Position numbers and translations under genes: made by a program. From an uncultured Alphaproteobacteria bacterium (GTDB lineage Bacteria > Pseudomonadota > Alphaproteobacteria > MPNO01 > DASWLB01): a stretch of DNA of 64,000 bases. The stretch is taken from assembly GCA_963826605.1 (NCBI GenBank), contig CAWGXN010000001.1:1495835-1559834 (forward strand). The letters run 5' to 3'. Below, piece by piece: positions 2,852 through 38,764 of this stretch (within the stretch, counting starts at the first letter, position 1; each line of letters starts with the position of its first letter). The notes under the pieces were generated by a model. The model had not been told where the DNA came from and ran no database searches. It saw nothing but the letters and a program-made list of their open reading frames with translations.

Positions 2852-4988
2852 ATGGCTGACGCACAGGCGACGGCACCGGCGGCCGGCGCAGAGAACGCGG
2901 CCGGCTCGAACCCGCTCGAGGCGATCGGCGGGTTCCTGCGCAAGCACGGCGACATCGCGCTCGCGCTCGGGCTGGTCACGCATCCTGGTCGTGCTGATCC
3001 TGCCGATGCCCGAGCTGGCTGCTGGATTTCGCCCTCGCGATCTCGATCACCTTCTCGGTGCTGATCCTGATGACGGCGCTGTTCATCTCGCGGCCGCTCG
3101 ACTTCACGTCCTTCCCGACGGTGCTGCTGATCGCGACGATGCTGCGTCTGGCGCTCAACCTGGCCTCGACGCGGCTGATCCTGGCCAACGGCCACGCCGG
3201 CCCGGCGCCGCCGGCCACGTCATCGAGGCGTTCGGCAATTTCGTCATCGGCGGCAACTTCGTGATCGGCATGATCGTCTTCGCGATCCTGGTGATCGTGA
3301 ACTTCGTCGTCATCACCAAGGGCTCGGGCCGCATCGCCGAGGTCGCGGCGCGCTTCAGCCTGGACGCCATGCCCGGCAAGCAGATGGCGATCGACGCCGA
3401 TCTGTCGGCCGGCCTGATCGACGAGAACGAGGCGCGCACGCGCCGCAAGCAGCTGGAGGACGAGACCAGCTTCTTCGGCGCGATGGACGGCGCGGCCAAG
3501 TTCGTGCGCGGCGACGCGATCGCCGGCCTGCTGATCACCTTCATCAACGTCATCGGCGGCATCGTCATCGGCGTCGCCCAGCAGGGCCTGTCGATCGGCG
3601 ACGCGGCGCACACCTACACCGTGCTGACCATCGGCGACGGGCTGGTCACCCAGATCCCGGCGCTGATCGTCTCGACCGCGGCGGGCATGCTGGTGTCCAA
3701 GGCCGGCGTCACCGGCTCGGCCGACAAGGCGCTGTTCGGCCAGCTCGGCGGCTATCCCACCGCGCTCGGCCATGTGCGTCGTTCCTGACTGCCGCCCTGG
3801 CGCTGCTGCCCGGCATCCCGATGCTGCCCTTCCTCACCCTGTCGGCCCTGACCGGCACGGTCGCGTGGCACCTGCGCGCCCGCAGGGCGCAGGAGGCGCG
3901 AGCGCGAGCGCGCAGGCCGAGGCCGGCAGCCGCCGCCCCGCGCGGAGGAGCCGATCGCCACCGCGCTGCAACTCGACGACGTCCGGCTCGAGCTGGGCTA
4001 CGGCGCTGCTGTCGCTGGTCAACCCCGGCGACGGGCCGATGCTGACCGACCAGATCAAGGCGCTGCGCCGCCAGCTCGCCAACGAGATGGGCTTCGTCAT
4101 GCCCGCCGTGCGCATCCAGGACAACATGCAGCTCGGCGCCAACACCTACGTCATCCGCATCAAGGAGATCGAGGCCGGGCGCGGCGAGCTCCGCCCCAAC
4201 ATGCTGCTGGTCATGGACCCGCGCGGCGAGCCGATCGCGCCTGCCCGGCGAGGACACGACCGAGCCGACCTTCGGCCTGCCCGCCATGTGGGTCGCCGAC
4301 AGCCACCGCGAGGAGGCCGGCTTCCGCGGCTACACCGTGGTCGACCCGCCGACGGTCATCACCACGCATCTGACCGAGGTCATCAAGGACAACATGGCGG
4401 AGCTGCTGTCCTACGCCGAGACCCAGAAGCTGCTCGACGAACTGCGGCAAGGAGCACCAGAAGCTGGTCGCCGACCTGGTCCCGGCGCACATCTCGGTCG
4501 GCGGCGCTGCAGCGCGTGCTGCAGAACCTGCTGTCCGAGCGCATCTCGATCCGCGACCTGCCGACCATCCTCGAGGGCGTCTCCGAGGCCTGCGGCTTCA
4601 CCCAGCACACCACCGCCGATCACCGAGCACGTGCGCGCCCGCCTCGCCCGCCAGATCTCCGACACGGCGCACCGGGCCGGACGGCTACGTCCCGCTGGTC
4701 ACCTTGTCGCCCGAGTGGGAGCAGGCGTTCGCTGGAATCGATCACCGGCCAGGGCGACGACCGGACAGCTCGCCATGGCGCCGTCCAAGCTGCAGGAGTT
4801 CATCGCCAAGGTGCGCGAGACGTTCGACAGGCTGGCGCTCACCGGCGAGACGCGCGGCGCTGCTGACCAGCGGCGCGACGCGCCCCTACGTGCGCTCGAT
4901 CGTCGAGCGCTTCCGCCCGGCCACCATGGTGATGTCGCAGAACGAGATCCACCCCAAGGCCCGGATCAAGACGCTGGGGCAGATATAG
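2852..4988 (+). pseudogene. flhA: flagellar export apparatus protein FlhA, at least 10 frameshifts
   Basis: Recognisable FlhA blocks scattered across frames: '[32 protein letters not shown]', '[48 protein letters not shown]', 'MLTDQIKALRRQLANEMGFVMPAVRIQDN', 'VVDPPTVITTHLTEVIKDNMAELLSYAETQKLLDEL', 'LQRVLQNLLSERISIRDLPTILEGVSEA', C-terminal 'PYVRSIVERFRPATMVMSQNEIHPKARIKTLGQI*'. Confidence 0.75.
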
Positions 4989-6766: not shown

Positions 6767-7151
6767 GCCTGTGGCGCTCGTGCGCGAGCGGATCGCGACG
6801 CGCGCCAACCCCGGCACGCGGCACGACTACCTGGTGCGGCTCGCCGGCGCGGTGATGCTCGGCGAGGGCACGGCGCACCTTACCCTGCACTACGTGCCGG
6901 ACCGGCTGATCGCCGAGGCCGCCGGGTTCGACTCCTATGTCGCGGCGCTCGGGTCGGTTCGCCACGATTCCCTCGAGGCGCTGGCGACCGCCGTGCTCGA
7001 CGACGTGAACAACGCTCTGGTGCCGCGCTGGGTGCGGGTCGCGCTCGCGGCCGACGCGCCCGCCGCCGCCCACCGCCATGCCGTGCTGATCGAGGACACC
7101 CAGCCCGGCTGGGAGAACGACGCGCTGCTCTCCGTCCTGCCGCCGTTCTGA
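6759..7151 (+). CDS. hypothetical protein (130 aa), translationally coupled to flhG
   Basis: GTG start overlaps the flhG stop (GTGGCTGA). No recognisable domain in 'MAEPVALVRERIATRANPGTRHDYLVRLAGAVMLGEGTAHLTLHYVPDRLIAEAAGF...'. Confidence 0.4.
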   Translation: MAEPVALVRERIATRANPGTRHDYLVRLAGAVMLGEGTAHLTLHYVPDRLIAEAAGFDSYVAALGSVRHDSLEALATAVLDDVNNALVPRWVRVALAADAPAAAHRHAVLIEDTQPGWENDALLSVLPPF

Positions 7152-7158
7152 ACAGCCG

Positions 7159-8796
7159 CTAGATTTCGTACACGACGCGGCCACCGACCATCGTCATCTC
7201 CGCGACGATGTGCGGCAGCGCGTCCTCGTCACAGGTCAGCGGATCGGTCGACAGCGCCACCAGGTCGGCCTGCTTGCCGGGCTCGATCGAGCCCAGATCG
7301 CCCTCGCGGAACATGAGCGACGCGCTGCCGAGCGTCGCTGCGCGCAGCGCCTGCTCGCGCGTCAGCTTCTCGCTCGCTGGCGTGACCTCGCGCCCCCGAT
7401 GATCGCGCCGCGCGACCACCTGATGGATCGCCGCCCATAGTGTAGGCGGGACGTTGTCGGTCTCGAGCCCGACGCGGATGCCTCTGCCCATCAACGTGCG
7501 CAGCGGCATGAAGGTCTCGTCAGCGGGGTTGCCGAACGGATTGCCCGGCGCGTTGCCCTCCTTGTCGATGAAGCGCTTGGCCAGCGGCGTGATGGCGATG
7601 TTGTGGCGCCTGAGGATCGCCATCTCGTCGGCGCTGGCCGCACCGAGATGCTGGCCGATCCAGCGCAATCCGTCGATCGGTGCCTCGGCCGCGACGCGAT
7701 CGAAAATTCGGACGAAGCGCATCGTCAGGCCCGACACCTGGATTTTGTGCCGCGCGGCCGCCACCAGCACGGGAAGAATCTCGTCCTCGGGCAGCCCGCA
7801 GTCGTAGTTGAACCCGGCCCAGCTCGTGTAGGGCGCGGCGGAGGCCCGCGCCTGGCTGTCCGGCCCGCCGCCGATTTCCACGAACATGCCGCCGACCCGC
7901 AGCCAGTCGTCGCCCCTATTGCCGGCGAAGTCCCCCACGCGCCGCACCCGCGCTTCGGGGTCGAGGCCTGACCAGGCCGGGCTGTGGACGAGCTGCGCGC
8001 GGACCGTGAGCCTCCCGTCGCGGTGTGCCGCCTGCCAGACCGTCATCACCTCGTCGGCGATGCCGTGCGGCTCGTGGACCGCAGTCGTGCCGGTCGAATT
8101 GTAGGTGCGCATCGCGCGCGCCAGACCGTCGCGGCGTTGCTCGGCGGTGAAGCGCGGCATGTCGTGGAAGAAGACGAGTTCGACCACCGACGCATGGGTC
8201 TTTTCCTCGAAAATGCCAGTGGGCTCGTCCGCCGCGTCGCGGCAGATGGTCACCGCAGGCGACGGAGCAGGCGTATTGCGGCCCACACCGGCGAGGGCAA
8301 GCGCCCGAGAGTTGGCCGCAGAGACCAGCGTCTCGGCCCGCGGCGCATCGCGCCAGTAGCCCCAGATCGGGCGGATATAAACCGGGTTGCCGGGCGCGGC
8401 GCGATCGAGCGCGTGGCGGTCGGGCGGCGGCGGCGCGTCGCGATATTGCGGCGGGCTGCCGAGCGGCATCGTGACGATCCATTCGCCTGGCCGCGCCTTC
8501 GCCGCCAGCGCGCGGATGCGCTCCAGCACCGCGTCCGTCGTCCGCGCCCCGGCGAGCGACGGGAAGAGGTCCTTCAGCCCCTCGCGGTCCAGATGGGCAT
8601 GCGCGTCGATCAGCCCGGGAATGACCGTGCGCCCGCCGAGGTCGCGCTCGGCAACCCCGGGCCCGGCGCGTTCGCGCATCTCGGCGATGCTGCCGACCGC
8701 CGCGATCCGTTCGCCCTCGACGAGAACGGCGTCGGCGACACGCGAGTCCGGCGAAAGCGTGACGATCCGGCCGCCGGCGAGGATCAGGCGCTCCAC
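7159..8796 (-). CDS. amidohydrolase 3 family metal-dependent hydrolase
   Basis: 545-aa intact ORF. N-terminal 'GLIDAHAHLD' metal-binding motif; the rest is typical of the YtcJ-like amidohydrolase fold. Confidence 0.8.
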   Translation of the reverse strand: MERLILAGGRIVTLSPDSRVADAVLVEGERIAAVGSIAEMRERAGPGVAERDLGGRTVIPGLIDAHAHLDREGLKDLFPSLAGARTTDAVLERIRALAAKARPGEWIVTMPLGSPPQYRDAPPPPDRHALDRAAPGNPVYIRPIWGYWRDAPRAETLVSAANSRALALAGVGRNTPAPSPAVTICRDAADEPTGIFEEKTHASVVELVFFHDMPRFTAEQRRDGLARAMRTYNSTGTTAVHEPHGIADEVMTVWQAAHRDGRLTVRAQLVHSPAWSGLDPEARVRRVGDFAGNRGDDWLRVGGMFVEIGGGPDSQARASAAPYTSWAGFNYDCGLPEDEILPVLVAAARHKIQVSGLTMRFVRIFDRVAAEAPIDGLRWIGQHLGAASADEMAILRRHNIAITPLAKRFIDKEGNAPGNPFGNPADETFMPLRTLMGRGIRVGLETDNVPPTLWAAIHQVVARRDHRGREVTPASEKLTREQALRAATLGSASLMFREGDLGSIEPGKQADLVALSTDPLTCDEDALPHIVAEMTMVGGRVVYEI

Positions 8797-26953: not shown

Positions 26954-28192
26954 CTACTCGCCTGCCGCCTCGGCGGCGTGGCGGCGCTCGACGGCGGAAT
27001 CGATGTCGCCCATGGTGAATCCCACCACGACGGCGGTGATCAGCAGAATGGCCGTGCCGGCGTGGAACACCACGTCCATCCCGCCGACGGCATAGATCAG
27101 CCCGAAGATCGGCGGCGCGATGGTCTGGCCGATGCGGAACATGGTCGAGTTGAGCGCCATCACCGCGGCCCGCGAATCGTGCGGCGCGAACTCCGCGACC
27201 AGCGTGTTGACCGAGGGGTTGAGCACCCCCTGCGCGAGGCCGCGGATGAAGGCCGGGATCAGCAGGTACCACAATGACGGCATGCCGACATTGAGCGAAA
27301 TCCCGGCGCCCGACAGGACCAGCCCGATGACGATCATCTGGCGGAAGGTGAGCAGCCGGCGGATGCGCACCGCCTGGGTCGACATGATGGTGGAGATCAC
27401 CGGGCTGAACCCGACGATGATGCCGATCTCCAGGGGCGATCCGCCGAACCGGCTGGAAATCAGGAAGGTCAGGTAGACGATCAGCACGCCGAACGAGACG
27501 GCCACCGTCATCAGGTTGCACAGGAACAAAGCTGCCATGCGCCGGTTGGCGATGCCGCGAAGCGCACTGCCCACATACTCGCCCATCGGCAGCGCGTGCT
27601 TGGGCTCGGGGTTGCGCAGCCGGAACGCCACCAGCCACGCTGCCGGCAGCCCGATCAGCGCCAGCAGGAACGGCCAGTGCCAGCCCGCCAGCGCCACCGC
27701 GCCGCCGAGGATCGGGTAGCCCAGCATCAGCGACGACATGACCGAGGCGTTGTAGCCCATCGCCTCCATGCGCCGTCGCCCGGTGAACAGCTCGCCGATG
27801 ACGGTGTTGTTGAGCGCGCCGAGCGGCGCCGCGGCGCAGCCCTGCAGGAAGCGGAGCACGATCAGCGTGGTGAAGCTCTGCGTCATCACGCAGGCCGACC
27901 CGGCAGCGGCGAACAGGATCAGGCTCGGCACCAGCACGCGCTTGCGGCCAATCCGGTCGGCGAGGATGCCGGCGACCGGCGACAGGAAGATGCCCGGCAG
28001 GGTGTTGAAGGTGATCAGCAGCCCCGCCTGCTGCGAGTTGATGTGGAACGCCTTCATGATCAGCGGGAAGGCCGGCGTGATGGTCGACGTGCCCAGCATC
28101 GCCGTCGCGGTCACGCAGAACAGGATCAACAGGTTGCGGTCGAGATAGAGCGGCCGCTCTCCGCCCCGCTTGCGGCGCGCCAGCGCGATCAT
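26954..28192 (-). CDS. MFS transporter (paralog 1)
   Basis: About 412 aa with 12 TM helices. 'GILADRIGRKRVLV' MFS motif A. ATGA-coupled to the upstream paralog. Confidence 0.8.
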   Translation of the reverse strand: MIALARRKRGGERPLYLDRNLLILFCVTATAMLGTSTITPAFPLIMKAFHINSQQAGLLITFNTLPGIFLSPVAGILADRIGRKRVLVPSLILFAAAGSACVMTQSFTTLIVLRFLQGCAAAPLGALNNTVIGELFTGRRRMEAMGYNASVMSSLMLGYPILGGAVALAGWHWPFLLALIGLPAAWLVAFRLRNPEPKHALPMGEYVGSALRGIANRRMAALFLCNLMTVAVSFGVLIVYLTFLISSRFGGSPLEIGIIVGFSPVISTIMSTQAVRIRRLLTFRQMIVIGLVLSGAGISLNVGMPSLWYLLIPAFIRGLAQGVLNPSVNTLVAEFAPHDSRAAVMALNSTMFRIGQTIAPPIFGLIYAVGGMDVVFHAGTAILLITAVVVGFTMGDIDSAVERRHAAEAAGE

Positions 28193-29404
28193 GCGGCCGC
28201 CCCGGTTCCGGTCGGGGTCGGGCCGAGCGCCCAGCCGACCGTAACCGCGCTCGCCGCCAGCATCACCGCCGCCGTGTAGAATACCGTGTCCATCCCCCCC
28301 AGCGCATAGCACAGCCCGAAGATCAGCGGGCCGAGCGTCTGGCCCGTCCGGCTGAGCATGCCGTTGAACGCCATCACCGCGGCGCGGCTCGTCACCGGGG
28401 CGTTTTCCAGCACCATCGTATAGAGCGACGGGTTGAGGATTCCCTGAGCGATGCCGCGCACGAAGGCCGGCACCAGCAGCAGCCACAGGGTTGGCATCAG
28501 CGTGTTGGTCGCCATGCCGATCGCCGACAGCAGCGTGCCCAGCACGATCATCTGGCGGTAGGTCATCAGCCGGGTGAGCCGTATCGCCTGGCTCGACATC
28601 AAGCGTGGACACGAACGAGGCCGAGGCGATCACCACGCCGATGGTGAACGGGTCGGCGTCGAACCGGTTCTTCATCAGGAGCGCGAGATAGACCATCAGC
28701 GCGCCGAACGCCACGATCACCCCCACCAGATTGGCGCTGCACAGCGTGATCATCCGCCGGTTGACGATGCTCTTGATCGCGCCGAGCAGGTACTCGCGGA
28801 AGCTCTGCGCGCCCTTGGGCTCGGGGTTGCGCAGCCCGAACGCGACGAAGCACGCGACCGGCACGGCGAACAGCGGCAGGAAGAACGGGTAGCGCCACCC
28901 CGCCAGCGCCACCAGCCCGCCCAGCATCGGGTTGTTGAGCGTCGCCATGTTCTGCACCGACGCGTTGTAGCCGATCGCCTCGGCGCGGGTGCGCCCGGAA
29001 TAGAGATCGCCGATCAGCGTGTTGTTGAGCGCGGTCAGCGCCGCGCCGCCGGTGCCCTGGACGAAGCGCAGGACGAGCAGCCAGTGGAAGCTGGGCACGA
29101 AGGCGCACGACGCGCCGGCGAAGGCGAACAGCAGCAGCGACGGGACCAGCACCCGCTTGCGCCCATAGCGGTCGGCGAGGAGCCCGACCACCGGCGCGAA
29201 CACGATGCCAGGCAGCGTGAAGAAGGTGATCAGCAGCCCCACCTGCTGCGACGAGATGTGGAAGGCGTGCATGATGGTGGGAAAGGCCGGGGTCAGCGAG
29301 CCGACGCCCATCATCGCCGTGATCGTGACCGAGAACACGATCATCAGGTTGCGCTCGAGATAGAGCGGCGGGCGGCGCTGGCCTTCGCGGGGAAACGCGG
29401 TCAT
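28189..29404 (-). CDS. MFS transporter (paralog 2; one frameshift near 28600)
   Basis: 'MTAFPREGQRRPPLYLERNLMIVFSVTITAMMG...GLLADRYGRKRVLV'. C-terminal part in a second frame. Confidence 0.75.
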
Positions 29405-29527
29405 CCGGACCTCGGTGTGGCCGGTCAAGCTAGCAGATGGCGGCCCCTGCTCCAACGCGCGGGGCTGCAAGCCAGCCCGCCGGCGCGGCCAGATCGAGAA
29501 GGGCGAACCCCGGTACCGGCGGTCACA

Positions 29528-30835: not shown

Positions 30836-33013
30836 GTGAAACGGGCCCTCGTCCTGATCCTGGCCGCACTGCTCGGGGCCGCCGCGCCGGCGCGGGCGGC
30901 GCCGTGGACCGATTATCGCGTCATCATGTGGCAGGACCAGACGCCGGAAGCCTACCGGGCGCTCGCCGCGATCGGCGTCGACGCCGCCGCCGTGTCATGG
31001 CGCAACGTGGGCACGGAAAAGCTCGACCGGGCGCTCGCCCCGCTGCGCGCGGCCGGGCTCGGCTGGTATTTCGAGAACGTCGCCACGGATTTCTACGCGT
31101 CCTATCACCGCTGGACGCCGGGCAAGCCGGTCAATTGGCGCTTCCTCGAGACGAAGCGGCGCTACAAGGCGAACCCGGACGACCCAACCGTGTTCTACCG
31201 CGAGCCGGGATTGAACGATCCGGCCTGGCTCGCCCGCATCCGCGCCCGCCTCACGCGGGCCGCGCGCGCCGCCGCCCCCTACCCGCCATTGTTCTACAAC
31301 CTGGCGGACGAGGCCGGCATCGCCGACAACGGCTCGTACTGGGATTTCGACCTCGCGCCGCGCTCCCTCGCCGGCATGCGCACCTGGCTGCGCGGACAGT
31401 ACGGCTCGCTCGCCGCGCTCAACCGGGAATGGGGCACGGACTTCGCGCGCTGGGACGAGGTCATGCCCGAGACCACGCCGCAGGCCTTCGCGCGCACGGA
31501 TTCCAACTTCGCCGCCTGGGCGGACTTCAAGGCGTGGATGGATGTCGCCTTCGCGCGCGCGGTGCGCACGGGCACGGAGGCTTTGCACGCGGCCGACCCG
31601 GAGGCGCGCTCGGCGCTGGAAGGCGGGCAGGTGCCCGGCTGGGGCGGATACGACTACACGCGTCTCGCCGGGGCGGTCGACGTGTTCGAGATCTACGACT
31701 TCGCCCAAAACATCGACATCGTGCGCTCGCTGTCGCCGGAGACGGTGCTGCTTTCGACCAGTGGCGGCATTGGGCCGCCCGCCGCGCACCAGGCCTGGAA
31801 CCTGCTGCTGCGCGGCGAGCGCGGCATCATCCTGTGGGACCCGAAGCACCGCCTGATGCAGCCGGACGGCGCGCCGGGCCCGGGCACGGATGCGGCCGCC
31901 GCTTTGTTCGCCCGGCTGCGCGGCGGGATCGGCGCGCTGATCGCCGGCGCGAGCCCTCATTACGACCCGGTCGCGATCCTCTATTCGCCGCCGAGCTTCC
32001 GCGCCCAATGGATGCTCGACGTGAAGCCCACCGGCGCGGCATGGAGCGCGCGAACGCCCGACTCGGAGTACGAGGACAATCCGGTGCGCGCGGCACGGCG
32101 CGGCTATTTCCAGGCGCTGCGCCGGCTCGGCATCGCGCCGCGCTTCATCTCCCCTGCCCAGCTCGCCGGCGGCATCCTGGACCGCCGCAAGGACAGGATG
32201 GTGGTTCTGCCGCACGCGATCGCTTTGTCCGAGGATGAGGCGCAGGCGGTGCGGCGCTTCGCCGAAGCGGGCGGGATCGTGGTCGCCGATACGATTCCCG
32301 GGGCGTTCGACGCCCACGTGAAGAAGCGGACAGCACCCGCGTTGGCCCGACTGTTTGGCTCCGGCCGCACCAACGTCAGGCTGGTTGCACCCGAGCCCGC
32401 GGCCCTGGCCGACGCGCTCCCGCCACTGCTGGCCTCGGCCGGGATCGCGCCCGCCGTGACGGTCCGGGGCGCCGACGGCGCGCGCCCGGCCGACGTCCAG
32501 AGCTACGCCTACCGCAATGGAGACGTGACCGTGATCGCCGTGCAGCGCGAAAGGCGGAAGGGCGCGCCGGCCGAGGAAATCGTGACGCTCGACGTGCCGA
32601 AGGGCGCCTACGTCACCGACCTGATGCAAGGCCGTCGGCTCGGCCAGACGGACCGCGTGACCGTCACGCTCGGGGCGGTCGCGCCGGCCATCTATGCGGT
32701 TTCGGCGCGGCCGCTGCCGCCATTGGAGATGTCGCTCGCCGACGGGGCGGATGCGACCCTGCATCTCGGCCGCGCCTCTCCGGTTGCGCGGCTGCGGCCG
32801 ATCCACGTCGCGGTGACCGGACCCGATGGCAGGGCCGTGCCGGCCCTCACCGGAAACGTGCTGCTGACCGGGATGGCCACCGACCGGCCGGTCGCGCCCG
32901 GGCAGGACGCGCCGCAGGGAACCTGGCGCGTGCGTGTAACCGACCTGCTGGCCGGCACGACGCGCAGTTTCGCGCTGGAGGTGCCCGCTACGCGGCGAGA
33001 GCCGCGCGATTGA
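30836..33013 (+). CDS. secreted hypothetical protein, 725 aa (possible GH42-like glycoside-hydrolase fold)
   Basis: GTG start. Signal peptide 'VKRALVLILAALLGAAAPARAAP'. No strongly diagnostic motif; W/Y-rich segments 'GWYFENVATDFYASYHRW'. Confidence 0.55.
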   Translation: MKRALVLILAALLGAAAPARAAPWTDYRVIMWQDQTPEAYRALAAIGVDAAAVSWRNVGTEKLDRALAPLRAAGLGWYFENVATDFYASYHRWTPGKPVNWRFLETKRRYKANPDDPTVFYREPGLNDPAWLARIRARLTRAARAAAPYPPLFYNLADEAGIADNGSYWDFDLAPRSLAGMRTWLRGQYGSLAALNREWGTDFARWDEVMPETTPQAFARTDSNFAAWADFKAWMDVAFARAVRTGTEALHAADPEARSALEGGQVPGWGGYDYTRLAGAVDVFEIYDFAQNIDIVRSLSPETVLLSTSGGIGPPAAHQAWNLLLRGERGIILWDPKHRLMQPDGAPGPGTDAAAALFARLRGGIGALIAGASPHYDPVAILYSPPSFRAQWMLDVKPTGAAWSARTPDSEYEDNPVRAARRGYFQALRRLGIAPRFISPAQLAGGILDRRKDRMVVLPHAIALSEDEAQAVRRFAEAGGIVVADTIPGAFDAHVKKRTAPALARLFGSGRTNVRLVAPEPAALADALPPLLASAGIAPAVTVRGADGARPADVQSYAYRNGDVTVIAVQRERRKGAPAEEIVTLDVPKGAYVTDLMQGRRLGQTDRVTVTLGAVAPAIYAVSARPLPPLEMSLADGADATLHLGRASPVARLRPIHVAVTGPDGRAVPALTGNVLLTGMATDRPVAPGQDAPQGTWRVRVTDLLAGTTRSFALEVPATRREPRD

Positions 33014-33464
33014 TCTCGGTCAAGGCCAGGTCGGTCAGCGCCAGGTCGGCCTCCTTCTCCTCGTCGAGCGAGCGATGCAGCGCCGCCGCATCGTCGTCGA
33101 GCCCCTGCTGCGCCGCGAGCGCGGCGACCGTTCCGTAGGCGGCCATCTGGTGGTGTTGCACCTTCTGCAGCGCGCCGACCAGACCGACATCGCCCAGCGC
33201 GTCGCTGTCCAACGGGGCGAGCATCTTCTCCATCTTTGAGACCATCGCCTCGACGATCTGGTCCATGTGGGGCAGCGGCTCGGCCTTGTGCGCCGCGAGG
33301 ATCGCCTCGAGCCGCTCCAGGCGCAGCGCCGCACCGTCGCGGTAGCTAAGGATGTGGGCCTTGAGCGTGGGCCGCGTGGCCAGCTCGGCAACCCGCGGCA
33401 GGTCGTTCGCCAGGATGCTCTCCGCGCCCAGCACTTCCTGCAGGGTTGCGACGTAGAAGCCCAA
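32988..33464 (-). CDS. DUF892 (YciE/YciF-like ferritin-fold) protein
   Basis: 'LVGALQKVQHHQMAAYGTVAALAAQQGLDDDAAALHRSLDEEKEADLALTDLA' matches the DUF892 C-terminal helix pair. Overlaps the convergent secreted-protein gene by 26 bp. Confidence 0.65.
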   Translation of the reverse strand: MGFYVATLQEVLGAESILANDLPRVAELATRPTLKAHILSYRDGAALRLERLEAILAAHKAEPLPHMDQIVEAMVSKMEKMLAPLDSDALGDVGLVGALQKVQHHQMAAYGTVAALAAQQGLDDDAAALHRSLDEEKEADLALTDLALTEINRAALAA

Positions 33465-33521
33465 AAGAAGTCTTGATCAGCATCGCTCGCACCTTTCGCC
33501 GCCGGAGGGGCGCCTGCCCGC

Positions 33522-34160
33522 TCAACGGCCGGGCGGGCCGCCGGTTCCCAGCTCGGCGGCGAGGCACGCGGCGAGCGCATCGACAGCCGCCGCAACGGCC
33601 GGGCTCACGCGGCTGCCGATGTCGAAGCGCATCCCCTCGACGGCACAGACGATGCAGGCCGGCGGCAGCGTGCCAAGCGTCCGCGCCAGCTCGATGGCCT
33701 CGTGAAGCCCGAACCCGTGGGTCGACATGCCGAACCGCGCGGCGGGCAGCGATCGCGCCGCCGCGTCGAAGCGGCGGATCGTCCCTGCCGGCGCGCCGGA
33801 CGCACAGGCATCGACCAGCCATACCGCCGCCGCGCGCTCCATCAGCGCAAGCAGCGCCGTCGCCTCGCCATCGGATTCGCAAATCAAGATGTCGTCGCTG
33901 GGCGCAGGCTGACCCCCCTCCCCAGCCCTCCCCCTCAAGGGGGGAGGGGGCGTTGCGTTGCTGCCCGTGTGCGCGATGGCAACATCGCGGCCGGGCTCGA
34001 TGCACCGTCGAAAGTCCCGGCGTTCCCTCCCACGTTGAGGGGGAGGGACAGGGTGGGGGGTAAGCAGAGCGGCCAGCCGCTGGGTGACGAGGCGACCGGC
34101 GGCGTCGTCGCCCCGATCGGGATTGCCGATGCCGATCACGACGCGGCGCGGGGCGTTCAC
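33522..34160 (-). CDS. hupD: [NiFe]-hydrogenase maturation endopeptidase (HupD/HybD-like) carrying an in-frame 54-aa repeat-derived insertion
   Basis: GTG start 4 bp after the hydA stop. 'VVIGIGNPDRGDDAAGRLV' (GxGN...DDGxG) and 'VWLVDA' motifs. Repeat family A copy 3 (33912-34063) is inserted between 'RLAALL' and 'DDILICESDG' without stops. Confidence 0.7.
   Translation of the reverse strand: MNAPRRVVIGIGNPDRGDDAAGRLVTQRLAALLTPHPVPPPQRGRERRDFRRCIEPGRDVAIAHTGSNATPPPPLRGRAGEGGQPAPSDDILICESDGEATALLALMERAAAVWLVDACASGAPAGTIRRFDAAARSLPAARFGMSTHGFGLHEAIELARTLGTLPPACIVCAVEGMRFDIGSRVSPAVAAAVDALAACLAAELGTGGPPGR
33912..34063. repeat. composite palindromic repeat family A, copy 3 (intragenic, in-frame)
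   Basis: 'cccccctccccagccctccccctcaaggggggaggggg' ... 'ccctcccacgttgagggggagggacagggtgggggg'. Confidence 0.8.
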
Positions 34161-34164
34161 CGCG

Positions 34165-35455
34165 TCAGCCCCGGTCGATGTCGAGCCGCAGGAAATGCGT
34201 CGAGCACGAGATGCAGGGGTCGTAGTTGCGCACCGTCTGCTCGCAGCGATGGCGCAGATCCTTGTCGGGCAGGTCGAGGAACCCGCCCACGAAACTCGCC
34301 AGATCGGCCTCGATGGAGGCCTGGTTCTGCGATGTCGGCGGCACGATCTTCGCCGTCGCGATGGTGCCGTCCGCGTTAAGCCCGTAGCGGTGATAGAGGA
34401 GCCCGCGCGGCGCCTCCGTCGCGCCGTACCCGGTGCCGGCGCGCGGCACGACCTCGACCGCCGGCCGGTCGGGCCGCTCGTACGCGTCGATGAGGCGCAG
34501 CGCTTCGTCGCAGGCAAACAGCACCTCGACGGCCCGCACGACGATGCTGCGATACGGGTTGGTGCAGACCGGCCCGAGCCCCGCCTCGCGCGCCGCCTCC
34601 CGCGCCAGCGGCGACAGGCGCTCGAGAGTTGAGGCATAGCGCGCGAGCGGCCCACAGAGATAGTCGCCGCCGTCGGTCATGCGCGAATGCAGCGCGGTCG
34701 AGCGCGCCACGTGGGACTCCTCGAAATGCGCCTCGTAGTCGCGCACCGCGATGTCGAGCCCGCGGTTCGACACGATGCGGCCGTCATTGAACGGGTACTC
34801 GTCGGGATGGCGCAGCGCGACAAAGGTGTAGTCGCGCGACCGCTCGGGGAAGTCGAACCCCGCCACCCAGCGCACGGTTTCAAGCGCGTCGTCGCGGGCG
34901 CGCTTCAGCGTTTCGGCGAGCGGCGCGAGCTCGCGCTTCGTCGGCACGCGGTAGAACCCGCCGACGCGCACGTTGATCGGGTGGATCTCGCGCCCGCCGA
35001 GAAGGGCGACGATCTCGTTCCCCGCCTTCTTCAGCGCGAGGCCGCGCGTCACCTCCGGGCCGTGGTCCCTGGCCATCTCGATCGCGCCGTCATAGCCGAG
35101 GAAGTCGGGCGCGTGCAGCATGACGACGTGCAGCGTGTGGCTTTCGATCCACTCCCCGCAATAGAGCAGCCGCCGCAGCGCGCGCAGCGGCCCGGTCACC
35201 GCCACGCCGAGCGCGTCCTCCATCGCGTGCACCGCGCTCATCTGATACGCGACCGGGCAGATGCCGCAGATGCGCGAGGTGATGTCCGGCGCCTCCGCAT
35301 GGTCGCGGCCGCGCAGGAACGCCTCGAAAAATCGCGGCGGCTCGAAGATCGAAAGCTCGGCACGCGCGCACCTTGCCGTCGCGCACCACGACCTTGAACG
35401 CGCCCTCGCCCTCGACCCGCGCCAGATAGTCGACCTTGATGGTCCTACGGGTCAT
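34165..35455 (-). CDS. hydA: [NiFe]-hydrogenase large (alpha) subunit, group 3-like (one frameshift near 35360)
   Basis: N-terminal '[12 protein letters not shown]'. L1-like '[11 protein letters not shown]'. C-terminal L2 '[11 protein letters not shown]'. About 430 aa. Confidence 0.8.
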
Positions 35456-35528
35456 GCCGCTCGCTCTCCTCGCGGAAGCCCGGCGCGTTGCCGTTGAAGT
35501 TGCGCCAGACGCTGGCTGAAGCGCGCGC

Positions 35529-36232
35529 TCATCCATGCCGAGCATCGTTCATCCAGGCGCTGAGCGAAGGTGCGTTCGGCGTCTCCTTCGGGCCGTAGCA
35601 GCCGTAGCAGCCGCGGTCGTAGCCGGGGCACAGCGCGCCGCACCCGGCATGGGTCGCGGGGCCCAGGCAGGGCGTGCCGTGCGCCACCATCACGCAGACA
35701 TTGCCCTTCAGCTTGCACTCGATGCAGACGCTGTGCGGCGGCGTCACCGGCCGGCGCCCGGCGAGGAAGGCCGAGATCACCTCGACGAGCTGGCGCTTGG
35801 AGATCGGGCAGCCGCGCAGCTCGAAATCGACCTTCACGTGGTCGGCGATCGGCGTCGATGTGTCTCGAGCGTCTGGATATAGTCGGGCCGCGCATAGACC
35901 ACCGACGCGTATTCCTTCACGTCGGCGAAGTTGCGCAGCGCCTGGATGCCGCCCGCCGTCGCGCACGCCCCGATGGTCACGAGCGTCCTGGAGCGCAGCC
36001 GGACGTCGCGGATGCGCGCCGCATCGTGCGGCGTGGTGATCGAGCCCTCGACCAGCGACAGGTCATAGGGCCCCTTCACCGTGCCGCGCGTCGCCTCGGG
36101 GAAATAGGCGATCTCGACCGCGCCGGCGACAGCCAGCAGCTCGTCCTCGCAATCGAGCAGGGTGAGCTGGCAGCCGTCGCAGGACGCGAACTTCCATACG
36201 GCGAGACGCGGCTTGCGCGGTTTCGCGGCCAC
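35529..36232 (-). CDS. hydD: [NiFe]-hydrogenase small (delta) subunit (one frameshift near 35880)
   Basis: '[21 protein letters not shown]' proximal-cluster cysteines. C-terminal '[11 protein letters not shown]...[30 protein letters not shown]'. GTG start with AAGGAG 8 nt upstream. Confidence 0.75.
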
Positions 36233-36233
36233 G

Positions 36234-37074
36234 TCAGATCTCCTTCGTCGCCAACAGCGTGCGGATGCGGTCATAGCGGAACACCGGCCCGTCGCGACAG
36301 ACGAACACGGTGCCGAACTGGCAGTGGCCGCACAGCCCGATCGCGCATTTCATGTTGCGCTCCATCGACAGGTGGATCGCATCGTCCGTCACGCCTGCGT
36401 CCCCCAGCGCGGCGACCGCGAAGCGCATCATCACTTCGGGCCCGCAGACCAGGGCGATGGCGTGCAGCGGGTCGAACGCCGCGCGCGGGATCAGCGCGGT
36501 CACCACGCCGACATGGCCGCGCCAGTCGCCCGTCGCGTGGTCGACCGTCACCTCGATGTCGATGTCCAGCCGGCGGCGCCACTGCTCCAGCTCGCGGCGG
36601 AACAGGATCTCGTCGGGGCTGCGCGTGCCGTAGAGCAGGCAGATCGTGCCGTAGCGCTCGCGCTCGGCCAACAGCCGGTAGAGCGCGGGACGCAGCGGCG
36701 CGAGTCCGAGCCCGCCGGCGACGACCACCACGTCGCGCCCGGCCGCCTCCGCGATCGGCCAGCTCGGTGCCGAACGGGCCGCGCAGCCCGACCGCATCGC
36801 CCGGCGCGAGGCCCGTCAAGGCGCGCGACACGGGCCCGACGGCGCGAATGGTATGGACCAGCGCCCCGCCGGCGGCGGGATCGCCGCTCACGCTGATCGG
36901 CACCTCGCCGACGCCGAATACGCCCAGCATGTTGAACTGGCCGGGCGCATAGCCCGCCTCGTCCGGCGCCTCGATGTCGAGCGTCCAGGTTTCCGCCACC
37001 TCGCGCCGGCGGCGGGCGACACGGGCGACGCGCGGCACCATCGGGTCGGGCTCAGCCACCGTCCGGCCGTCCAT
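36234..37074 (-). CDS. hydG: hydrogenase gamma subunit, FAD/NAD(P)-binding with [2Fe-2S] (one frameshift near 36790)
   Basis: '[17 protein letters not shown]' NAD-binding motif. C-terminal '[12 protein letters not shown]' 2Fe-2S site. Confidence 0.7.
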
Positions 37075-37528
37075 AGACGTCGAGAATCTGCAGCCGGGTC
37101 GCCTGCAGCCGCTGGGCGATGACCGGCAGGAAGCGCATCAGCACGTCATATCCGAGATCGTGGTCCGCCTCGCACTTCTCGCGCAGGCACCTCGCATCCA
37201 TCGCGATGGCGCGCACCAGCACCAGCGCCTTCGCGTCGTAGGTCCAGCGATAGGGCGGGATCAGCCAGGACACGCCGACGATCTCGCCGGCGACGATGGT
37301 CTGGAAGGTGACGGCACCGCGGCCCGGCGCCGTCACCTCGAGCGCCACGCGCCCGTGGCGCAGCAGGTAGAAGCTGTCTGCCGGCTCGCTTTCGCGGAAC
37401 AGGTACTGGCCCGCCTCGAACCGCACGTTCTTCGCGCAGCCGCAGATCAGGTCGCAGAACGCGTCGGGCAGCCCGGCGAAGAACGGATGCTCGCGTACGA
37501 TCCGGTCGATGCCCTCGATCTCCACCAT
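37052..37528 (-). CDS. cyclic-nucleotide-binding domain protein (no DNA-binding domain)
   Basis: 158 aa. '[29 protein letters not shown]' cNMP-binding beta-barrel. Embedded between hydB and hydG. Confidence 0.7.
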
Positions 37529-37537
37529 GGCCCCTCC

Positions 37538-38656
37538 TCAGCGCGACGGCGTCTCGCGGATCGCGCGTACCTCCTCGGTGATGTCGATACCGACCGGGCA
37601 CCAGGTGATGCAGCGCCCGCAACCCACGCAGCCGGACGTGCCGAACTGATCGTACCAGGTCGACAGCTTGTGGGTCATCCACTGGCGATAGCGCGAGCGG
37701 GTGGAGGCGCGCACCGAGCCGCCGTGAATATAGGAGAAATCCATCGTGAAGCAGGAGTCCCAGCGGCGCGACCGCGACGTCTCGGTTCCGGTCAGGTCGC
37801 TGGAGTCCTCGACCGAGGTGCAGAAGCAGGTGGGGCACACCATCGTGCAGTTGCCGCAGGACAGGCACCGCTGCGCCACCTCGTCCCAGCGCGGATGATC
37901 GAGATTGGCAAGAAGGAGCTGGTGCACATCCTCCTCGTGCATCTCGCGCCCCATCGTGGCGGCGGCGTGCGCGACGGCCGCCTCGGCCGCGGCCGTATCG
38001 GCCTCGGTCGCCGCCCGCTGCGGCAGGCCGGCCAGGATTTCGCCGCCCCTTTCGGAGCCGACCTCGACCACGAAAGACCGTTCGCCCTCGACCACGATCT
38101 CGGTCAAGGCGAGGTCGAACCCGCCAGTCGCCTTGGGGCCGGCCTTCATCGAGACGCAGAAGCAGGTACCGCCCGCCGTGCCGCAATTCACCGCGACCAC
38201 GAACGCGCGCTCGCGCCGCGCCTTGTAGTCGGGATCGACGTGGGCGCCCTCGAGGAACACGCGGTCCTGGATCGCGATGGCGCCGAGGTCGCACGACCGC
38301 ACCCCGATGAAGGCGAAGCGCTCCTCGCTGGGCGGCTCGGGCGTGACCTCCACCCCGTCTTCCGTGCGGCGGGCCTGCCACAGGCGCAGCACCGGCGGGT
38401 GCAGGAAGCGCTTCCAGCTATGCGGCCCGACCGCGTAACCGAACAGCGCGTCGTCCTCGCGCCGTGCGAGGCGATAGGTGCCGCCGTCCTGCGTGTCGGT
38501 CCAGCCGCGCGGCAGGTCGGCGACCCCGGCGACGTCGTCATAGACGATCGCCTGATCGCGCAGGGTGGGGCCGATCAGCCGATAGCCGCGGTCGCGCAAT
38601 GCGCCAAGAAGGGCGTCGAGCGCGTCGATGCCAATCACGACGGGATCGCCGGTCAT
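37538..38656 (-). CDS. hydB: hydrogenase beta subunit (4Fe-4S dicluster protein, sulfhydrogenase HydB-like)
   Basis: 372-aa intact ORF. '[16 protein letters not shown]' and '[12 protein letters not shown]' ferredoxin-type Cys motifs. Confidence 0.75.
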
Positions 38657-38764
38657 GCGCGCTGGGCCCGGGCGGTGCTCATGCGGCTGCTATGGTTTCA
38701 CAGCATGTCCGGCGAATAAAGGGAATCCGCGGTCGCACCCGCGTCGCGGGCGCCGGGAACGTCG

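Follow-up and report, generated by a model that had tools for sequence, protein, structure and literature searches.

Which enzyme is encoded at positions 33522-38656 (minus strand, ~5.1 kb) of a 64,000-nt stretch of contig CAWGXN010000001.1 from an uncultured alphaproteobacterium (the whole stretch, here called the window), and is its operon intact, given that several of its genes are interrupted in the deposited sequence? We consider it highly probable that the locus specifies a bacterial group 3b (Hyh/sulfhydrogenase-type) cytoplasmic [NiFe] hydrogenase and that the insertions that interrupt it are assembly errors. The assignment to group 3b is, by sequence comparison, well supported.

The map of open reading frames (ORFs) and their translations give the gene order hydB, an ORF with a cyclic nucleotide-binding (CNB) domain, hydG, hydD, hydA and hupD, all on the minus strand. 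The ORF map and Pfam agree with the six genes, the order and the end points that the initial annotation of this DNA had given. The genes are listed here with their lengths in amino acids (aa), corrected where frame breaks were removed.

38656-37538, minus strand: hydB (hyhB), beta subunit, 372 aa; Pfam Fer4_22, 2.4e-33; frame intact
37528-37052, minus strand: CNB ORF, 158 aa; Pfam cNMP_binding, 1.3e-13; no other domain
37041-36234, minus strand: hydG (hyhG), gamma subunit, 268 aa corrected; Pfam NAD_binding_1 and DHODB_Fe-S_bind
36232-35445, minus strand: hydD (hyhS), delta or small subunit, 260 aa corrected; Pfam Oxidored_q6; NCBIfam ShyD and HydD best
35455-34165, minus strand: hydA (hyhL), [NiFe] large subunit, 429 aa corrected; Pfam NiFeSe_Hases; NCBIfam ShyA and HydA best
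34160-33522, minus strand: hupD, maturation endopeptidase, 212 aa as written; Pfam HycI

The start of hydG at 37041 was picked by analogy with a close relative that has an intact reference operon (locus L082; ENA assembly ERZ25039495, contig_9286; 83.5% nucleotide identity). The gene junctions, including an 11-nt overlap of hydD and hydA, agree with those of L082.

Several lines of evidence place the corrected large subunit in group 3b. Its best matches in the PDB are the cytosolic NiFe hydrogenase of Thermococcus kodakarensis (3e-66) and the alpha subunit of Pyrococcus furiosus sulfhydrogenase I (SHI; 6e-63) (entries 5yxy and 9nez). The bit scores are 228 and 217 for these 3b enzymes, versus 143 for group 3c, 131 for group 3d and at most 122 for group 3a. 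Against NCBIfam models, HydA scores 271 bits for ShyA, 236 for HydA and 133 for FrhA. It shares 59% identity, along its entire length, with the large subunit encoded on a Rhodococcus BH4 plasmid, and 28% with HoxH of Cupriavidus necator (group 3d).

After frame correction HydA carries the motif RVEGEG, an L1 motif with both cysteines (RICGIC, at ~35274) and an L2 motif with both cysteines (DPCISCSTH), followed by a nine-residue tail, FLRLDIDRG. The large-subunit motif cited initially was located by motif search at ~34221. Across 82 related loci the motifs RVEGEG, RICGICP[VI]AY and DPCISC[AS]TH are essentially invariant. Loss of the L1 or L2 cysteines after frame correction had been set beforehand as grounds for rejecting the identification; both pairs are present, as in a true [NiFe] hydrogenase.

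The partner subunits are those of a group 3b enzyme. HydB is an AsrA-like protein with 4Fe-4S dicluster motifs, and its best NCBIfam models are sulfhydrogenase ShyB and HydB, then AsrA. HydG is an AsrB-like FAD/NAD(P)-binding oxidoreductase with a C-terminal 2Fe-2S site (NCBIfam: hydrogenase gamma subunit, AsrB, ShyC, HydG). HydD, the small subunit, has the proximal-cluster cysteines and a cysteine-rich C-terminal half for further clusters. Thus, each structural subunit has the corresponding sulfhydrogenase subunit as its best NCBIfam match (ShyA/HydA, ShyB/HydB, ShyC/HydG, ShyD/HydD). By inspection, HydD starts at its first cysteine motif and has no Tat leader, and Pfam identified no gene for a membrane subunit among the six, as is expected of a cytosolic enzyme. 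The proposal of a four-subunit group-3b-like [NiFe] hydrogenase, with a beta-gamma-delta-alpha order like that of archaeal sulfhydrogenases and mycobacterial Hyh, therefore stands: PDB scores, NCBIfam scores, identities and partner subunits agree, and the subunit types match the archaeal models.

Many JGI records call close homologues of HydA a "coenzyme F420-reducing hydrogenase alpha subunit", which would favor group 3a. Such an assignment, like one to group 3c or 3d or to a non-hydrogenase Nuo/Ech-like complex, is effectively refuted and we give it next to no weight. The 3a, 3c and 3d structures score far under those of 3b, FrhA scores less than half of ShyA, identity to HoxH is low, and the Ni-Fe cysteine ligands are present. 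In addition, the operon encodes no FrhB, HoxF/HoxU, MvhD/Hdr or membrane subunits, and its partner proteins are AsrA-like and AsrB-like. The JGI label conflicts with these partner subunits and scores and looks like a propagated annotation error.

Within group 3b, the Thermococcales equivalog cut-offs (NF040828-NF040836) were not reached by any subunit (alpha 271 of 700 bits, beta 152 of 690, gamma 163 of 600, delta 159 of 460). Because all subunit scores lie so far below these cut-offs, we conclude from the scores that the predicted enzyme belongs to a bacterial sister clade and is not the archaeal enzyme. As cited in PMC13332983, Greening et al. (2016) put the equivalent cluster of Rhodococcus equi in group 3b.

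Is the operon intact? We placed insertion sites by DNA alignment against L082 and against L001, the next-closest relative, and identified frame switches by three-frame translation. There are five frame-breaking insertions totaling 7 nt, one in hydG, three in hydD and one in hydA.

~36766 (to a few bases), minus strand: +1 in hydG; one-base gap in L082 and L001
35862-35863, minus strand: +2 in hydD; context GAGACACATCG; probably an assembly error
~35547, minus strand: +1 in hydD; from the DNA alignment with L082 and L001
35513-35514, minus strand: +2 in hydD; from the same alignment
~35369, minus strand: +1 in hydA, between residues ~30 and ~31; from the same alignment

Together, the insertions at 35547 and 35513-35514 put ~11 C-terminal codons of hydD out of frame and generate a false stop at 35529. 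As deposited, three of the four structural genes (hydG, hydD and hydA) are not intact ORFs; hydB is. With the 7 nt taken out, HydG (268 aa), HydD (260 aa) and HydA (429 aa) are read without internal stops and align without gaps. All are colinear with their L082 orthologues, as is HydB (identities of 83.6% for HydB, 89.6% for HydG, 90.4% over 260 aa for HydD and 87.4% for HydA). A shortened HydA ORF of 358 aa is on record as an NCBI/ENA predicted protein with 100% identity, from a contig of 1,842,114 bp; the indels thus belong to the deposited assembly. The initial annotation had recognized a frameshift, which is real, but it counted one where the alignment with L082 and L001 finds five, and its large subunit of 430 aa becomes 429 aa after correction. 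It also described the operon as complete. All six genes are indeed present, but the operon can be called complete only on the assumption that the five indels arose in assembly.

We consider it very likely from the sequence comparisons that the five insertions are errors in the consensus of a metagenome assembled from long reads, and most likely that the operon is intact in the organism. Frame breaks were mapped over the whole window with a frame map based on GC content at third codon positions (GC3), and fragments in adjacent frames were then matched to Pfam. The window contains at least 17 frame-breaking indels in 64 kb, the operon included. Those outside the operon lie at ~2108, 2300-2550, 3200, 3790-4000, 4236 and 4620-4680, and at ~14870, 18890, 22103, 49385, 50610 and 56268. 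They affect a sigma-54 activator (two breaks) and a class I tRNA-synthetase-like gene, in both of which one Pfam profile is split over adjacent frames. In flhA there are at least four breaks in 2.1 kb, with FHIPEP positions 13-73, 74-260, 338-421, 415-491 and 562-656 in separate frame segments. The plsX profile is divided between adjacent frames at positions 1-115 and 115-322, and that of a ClC channel at 1-192 and 199-343. In an FAD-linked oxidase and in FabH, successive domains of one protein occur in adjacent frames. A break in spermidine synthase was suggested by the GC3 frame map only, with no confirmation from Pfam. In a free-living genome of 70% GC, genes essential for lipid synthesis cannot all have been inactivated, and a low-accuracy consensus is the simplest explanation.

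Many of the related metagenome-assembled genomes (MAGs) bear contig names of the form "contig_NNNN", which we take to be typical of long-read metagenome assemblies. L001 comes from the same assembly as L082 (ERZ25039495) and has a broken hydB at 6781-7915, annotated there as a Fer4_22 fragment of 68 aa and a spurious antisense ORF of 308 aa; this fits indel errors in that assembly.

The protease gene hupD is altered in a different way. It contains a palindromic insertion:

33908..34065, no strand assigned: palindromic element of 158 nt in hupD; 41-nt inverted arms (83% complementary), 76-nt spacer

The element adds 54 residues in frame, between the GDD motif and the next strand of HupD. In an alignment with ten relatives, the GDD, VDA and STHG motifs flank the insertion. 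Without it, HupD would be ~158 aa long, and with the insertion removed it scores 98.4 bits against TIGR00072 (cut-off 47.45). We assigned the metal-ligand residues on what we take to be the pattern in HybD. The insertion is absent from all relatives in the HupD alignment except L082, where hupD has a shorter, perfect single hairpin at the same codon position (~13489-13539 of L082). Apart from this same-site variant, no other copies of the palindrome were identified in the window or in the 82 loci. We therefore set aside its interpretation as a multi-copy miniature inverted-repeat transposable element or repetitive extragenic palindrome, and "mobile repeat" is an unproven description.

Genes for HypC, HypD, HypE and HypF were not identified in the 64-kb window, either by motif search or by tblastn with the Hyp proteins of eight related loci (those in which hypFCDE comes after the protease gene). 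This agrees with what had been noted from the ORFs. The absence is not unusual, as the HypD motif occurs within 10 kb in only 22 of the 82 loci, and neither of the two closest relatives has a gene of a Hyp-type Pfam family within 10 kb. Genes for the Hyp maturation proteins must lie in another part of the genome.

Five indels across three of four structural genes, the 54-aa insertion in hupD, the lack of hyp genes in the window and an indel density slightly above the window average might instead mark a decaying pseudogene cluster, in which the indels are real, the protease is disrupted by a repeat and the hydrogenase is no longer made. We consider this improbable. Essential plsX and fabH, and other genes in the window, bear the same kind of break, and flhA is more densely broken than the operon. 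Besides the indels, there are no in-frame stops, deletions or signs of accelerated divergence, and the proteins are colinear with, and 84-92% identical to, those of the intact relative. The hupD insertion is in frame, and a variant at the same site occurs in L082, whose other five genes are intact.

Some observations weigh against our preferred reading, a group 3b hydrogenase whose genes are broken only in the assembly. The frame map detects three breaks in the 5.1 kb of the operon, where ~1 is expected from a background of at least 12 breaks in ~59 kb; this excess is at most marginal (Poisson P ~0.08, hand calculation). Each of the five indels adds bases relative to both relatives and lies outside any homopolymer run, unlike the classic errors of nanopore reads and the deletions in homopolymers that are usual with long reads. 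A mixture of strains in the consensus or an artefact of polishing could account for such insertions. The 54-aa insertion could impair the HupD protease, and with no hyp genes in the window or within 10 kb in the two closest relatives, the capacity for maturation is putative. Finally, neither the preference for NADH or NADPH nor the catalytic direction can be read from the sequence. In view of the number of breaks, apparent pseudogenes, frameshifts and odd ORF lengths anywhere in the window should be treated as possible assembly artefacts and not as biology. A single 824-aa open frame at 26957-29428 (minus strand) has two full major facilitator superfamily domain sets (residues ~32-274 and ~448-800) and is either a tandem fusion or two genes joined through a lost stop.

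What is the gene between hydB and hydG? The initial annotation listed it as a "cNMP ORF". The ORF is present and has the cNMP_binding domain, but it is not an incidental insert: of the 76 related loci in which both hydB and hydG occur, 75 have an equivalent gene between the two. As a fifth gene it is conserved, and near-universal, in bacterial 3b cassettes. The protein has more than 3600 homologues, nearly all of 153-155 aa, and is approximately as well conserved as HydG. It consists of a single CNB domain without a DNA-binding domain, and its best solved match is 3mdp, a structural-genomics entry. The family is recognized by the signature G[ED]xxGWSWLxPPY[RK]WxFDARA, in which WSWLxPPY is near-invariant.

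The phosphate-binding cassette of this domain appears remodelled. The Gly at position 81 (G81) is conserved and followed by Glu or Asp at position 82; Arg or Lys fills the Arg position in 58 of 75 sequences, and the next residue is Trp in 63 of 75. This Trp occupies the position of the Ser/Thr of canonical cAMP and cGMP binders (CAP/PKA type). Given the replacement of this phosphate-contacting Ser/Thr by Trp and the altered pocket, the sensed ligand may be NAD(P)(H) or a nucleotide other than cAMP and cGMP.

The CNB gene has been noted before, in R. equi (PMC13332983) and in Methylosinus (PMC12319191), where it was named "HoxI"; neither paper reports a functional test of it in a group 3b enzyme. 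We compared the protein with the authentic HoxI of plasmid pHG1 and rejected orthology (24% identity over 117 residues, pairwise E value of 2e-5). HoxI was not recovered by tblastn at an E value of 1e-3 in a plasmid collection that includes pHG1, and the family signature is not visible in the alignment with C. necator HoxI. The CNB protein is thus probably a functional analogue of HoxI and not its orthologue, the shared name reflecting the shared domain. More tentatively, and with the balance tipped slightly against the idea, it might serve essentially all bacterial 3b enzymes as an obligatory fifth subunit, or as an allosteric sensor of nucleotides, recruited independently of HoxI. This protein is the one part of the locus that raises a question, and that question is not specific to this window.

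How unusual is the cassette? HydA has more than 8000 close homologues, and the best 120 are 78-87% identical and nearly all 429 aa long. A scan of species-representative genomes (one genome per species) confirmed at least 589 stretches as relatives. The 80 loci kept from it for comparison include Alphaproteobacteria, Gammaproteobacteria, Acidobacteriota, Actinomycetota, Chloroflexota, Planctomycetota, Bacteroidota and Ignavibacteriota. The cassette is also borne on plasmids or megaplasmids of Paraburkholderia, Burkholderia, Pandoraea, Rhodococcus and Streptomyces, and in Rhodococcus and Paraburkholderia the RefSeq annotation has the same set of six. MAGs assigned to distant phyla, and one even to an archaeon, carry cassettes that are 66-77% identical to the one here, the CNB gene included (L007, Terriglobia; L063, Bathyarchaeia; L016, L017 and others). 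The occurrence of cassettes in distant phyla and on plasmids suggests frequent horizontal transfer, or some mis-binning.

The cassette is therefore routine, very widespread and already described; this locus adds one more instance and no new biology. An aerobic alphaproteobacterial context had been considered unusual for such an enzyme. We do not find it so: a group 3b enzyme in an aerobic alphaproteobacterium is to be expected because the cassette is so widespread, and it has been described in aerobic Methylosinus (PMC12319191) and in R. equi (PMC13332983). Indirect markers of an alphaproteobacterial source are an HWE histidine kinase, a Cbp3-type bc1 chaperone, the gene order plsX-fabH-HU/IHF-type DNA-binding protein-merR and ~70% GC in the window, together with the named relatives of HydA.

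What might the enzyme do? By homology to P. furiosus SHI and Mycobacterium smegmatis Hyh, NAD(P)H would bind HydG, the FAD/NAD(P) subunit. Electrons would pass from FAD to the 2Fe-2S cluster, both in HydG, on to the 4Fe-4S clusters in HydB and through the HydD clusters to the Ni-Fe site in HydA, where protons would be reduced to H2 or, in reverse, H2 oxidized. Once the metal is in place, HupD would cleave off the short tail at the C-terminus of HydA. The CNB protein would be a conserved accessory component, probably a nucleotide-sensing or nucleotide-binding partner analogous to HoxI that modulates or senses nucleotide state. The analogy with M. smegmatis Hyh suggests that the enzyme most likely serves to discharge surplus reductant as H2 in hypoxia or reductive stress.

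All genes from 47640 down to 33522 are co-directional, and the hydrogenase lies at the distal end of this array, as had been described; the catabolic character of the array and the DUF892 neighbor are borne out by the gene map and Pfam. Upstream on the same strand are genes for nitronate monooxygenase, enoyl-CoA hydratase, an ADP-forming acyl-CoA synthetase, acyl-CoA dehydrogenase, a three-gene ABC transporter and an IclR regulator. The flanking features are:

38657..38764, minus strand: 108 nt separating the iclR stop from the hydB start; presumed to hold the promoter of the cassette
33464-32988, minus strand: DUF892 gene, downstream of hupD; Pfam DUF892

In the spacer, a GC hairpin with a T-rich tail behind it, at 38743-38728, makes a terminator-like site; counts of terminator-like sites show no excess over shuffled sequences and are at the level of chance. 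Neither a sigma-70 consensus nor an FNR/FixK-like box was identified in the spacer, and no regulatory site that would decide between H2 evolution and uptake was found upstream of hydB. The best FNR/FixK-like boxes of the region adjoin the DUF892 gene. They lie on either side of it, at 33010-33023 (TTGATCTCGGTCAA, one mismatch) and at 33473-33486 (TTGATCAGCATCGC, two mismatches), the latter just upstream of the DUF892 start. Boxes with at most two mismatches are ~4-fold enriched window-wide (20 found versus 5.2 expected).

Elsewhere, the cassette of Paraburkholderia plasmid pOLGA1 (L085) has genes for a universal stress protein and hemerythrin as neighbors, and that of Rhodococcus BH4 (L084) has wax-ester/triacylglycerol synthases and a trehalose-phosphatase. 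Such recurrent stress- or dormancy-type neighbors, DUF892 here included, would fit a role in hypoxia or persistence.

The same enzyme could work mainly in the direction of H2 uptake and not of fermentative H2 evolution, the NAD(P)H so formed serving biosynthesis or maintenance. Enzymes of group 3 are bidirectional, and those of alphaproteobacterial methanotrophs are discussed in PMC12319191 as a route from H2 to NAD(P)H. Nothing in the window marks a fermentative lifestyle, and oxygen-dependent enzymes (luciferase-like monooxygenases and the nitronate monooxygenase) and the cytochrome bc1 chaperone are encoded there. We nevertheless consider uptake as the main direction rather unlikely. Hydrogenase 3b of M. 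smegmatis is linked to hypoxia and makes H2 by oxidation of NAD(P)H (Berney et al., 2014, as cited in PMC13332983). Genes for an uptake hydrogenase or for CO2 fixation were not identified in the window, and the neighbors of the cassette, here and on plasmids, are of stress type (DUF892, universal stress protein, hemerythrin, wax-ester synthase). In either direction, the locus represents a probable capacity for NAD(P)H/H2 exchange, for dumping of reductant under hypoxia or for drawing on H2, a capacity that is already recognized as common in aerobic soil bacteria.

The closest known systems are bacterial. M. smegmatis Hyh (Hyd3), the 3b cluster of R. equi 103S, the Rhodococcus sp. BH4 plasmid and plasmid pOLGA1 of Paraburkholderia phytofirmans have the same six genes in the same order (PMC13332983 and plasmid annotation). 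The HydA of Rhodococcus BH4, 59% identical as given above, has the same L1 and L2 motifs. Compared with the actinobacterial and proteobacterial 3b cassettes, the deposited sequence here differs in its five frame-breaking insertions and in the 54-aa palindromic insertion in hupD. In pOLGA1 hypA lies beside the protease gene, whereas the cassette in the window has no adjacent hyp gene. Among Alphaproteobacteria, the Hyd-3b cluster of the aerobic "Methylosinus acidophilus" 29 is a group 3b system that also has a CNB-domain protein (PMC12319191), and the Methylosinus sporium locus (L014) has the same cassette with a HydA that is 72% identical.

The archaeal sulfhydrogenases I and II (P. furiosus HydBGDA and ShyBCDA; T. 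kodakarensis; 9nez, 5yxy) have the same subunit types in the beta-gamma-delta-alpha order. They share the L2 motif DPCISCS-H, but their L1 motif ends in His (RICSFCSAAH) where the one here ends in Tyr (RICGICP[VI]AY). To our knowledge, the four-gene archaeal sulfhydrogenase operons lack the CNB gene, whereas the bacterial cassette has it. HoxI of C. necator (group 3d, HoxHYFUI2; PMC3189943) is likewise a small single-CNB protein encoded in the operon of a soluble [NiFe] hydrogenase. The position of the gene differs, however: hoxI comes after hoxW in C. necator, whereas the CNB gene here lies between hydB and hydG.

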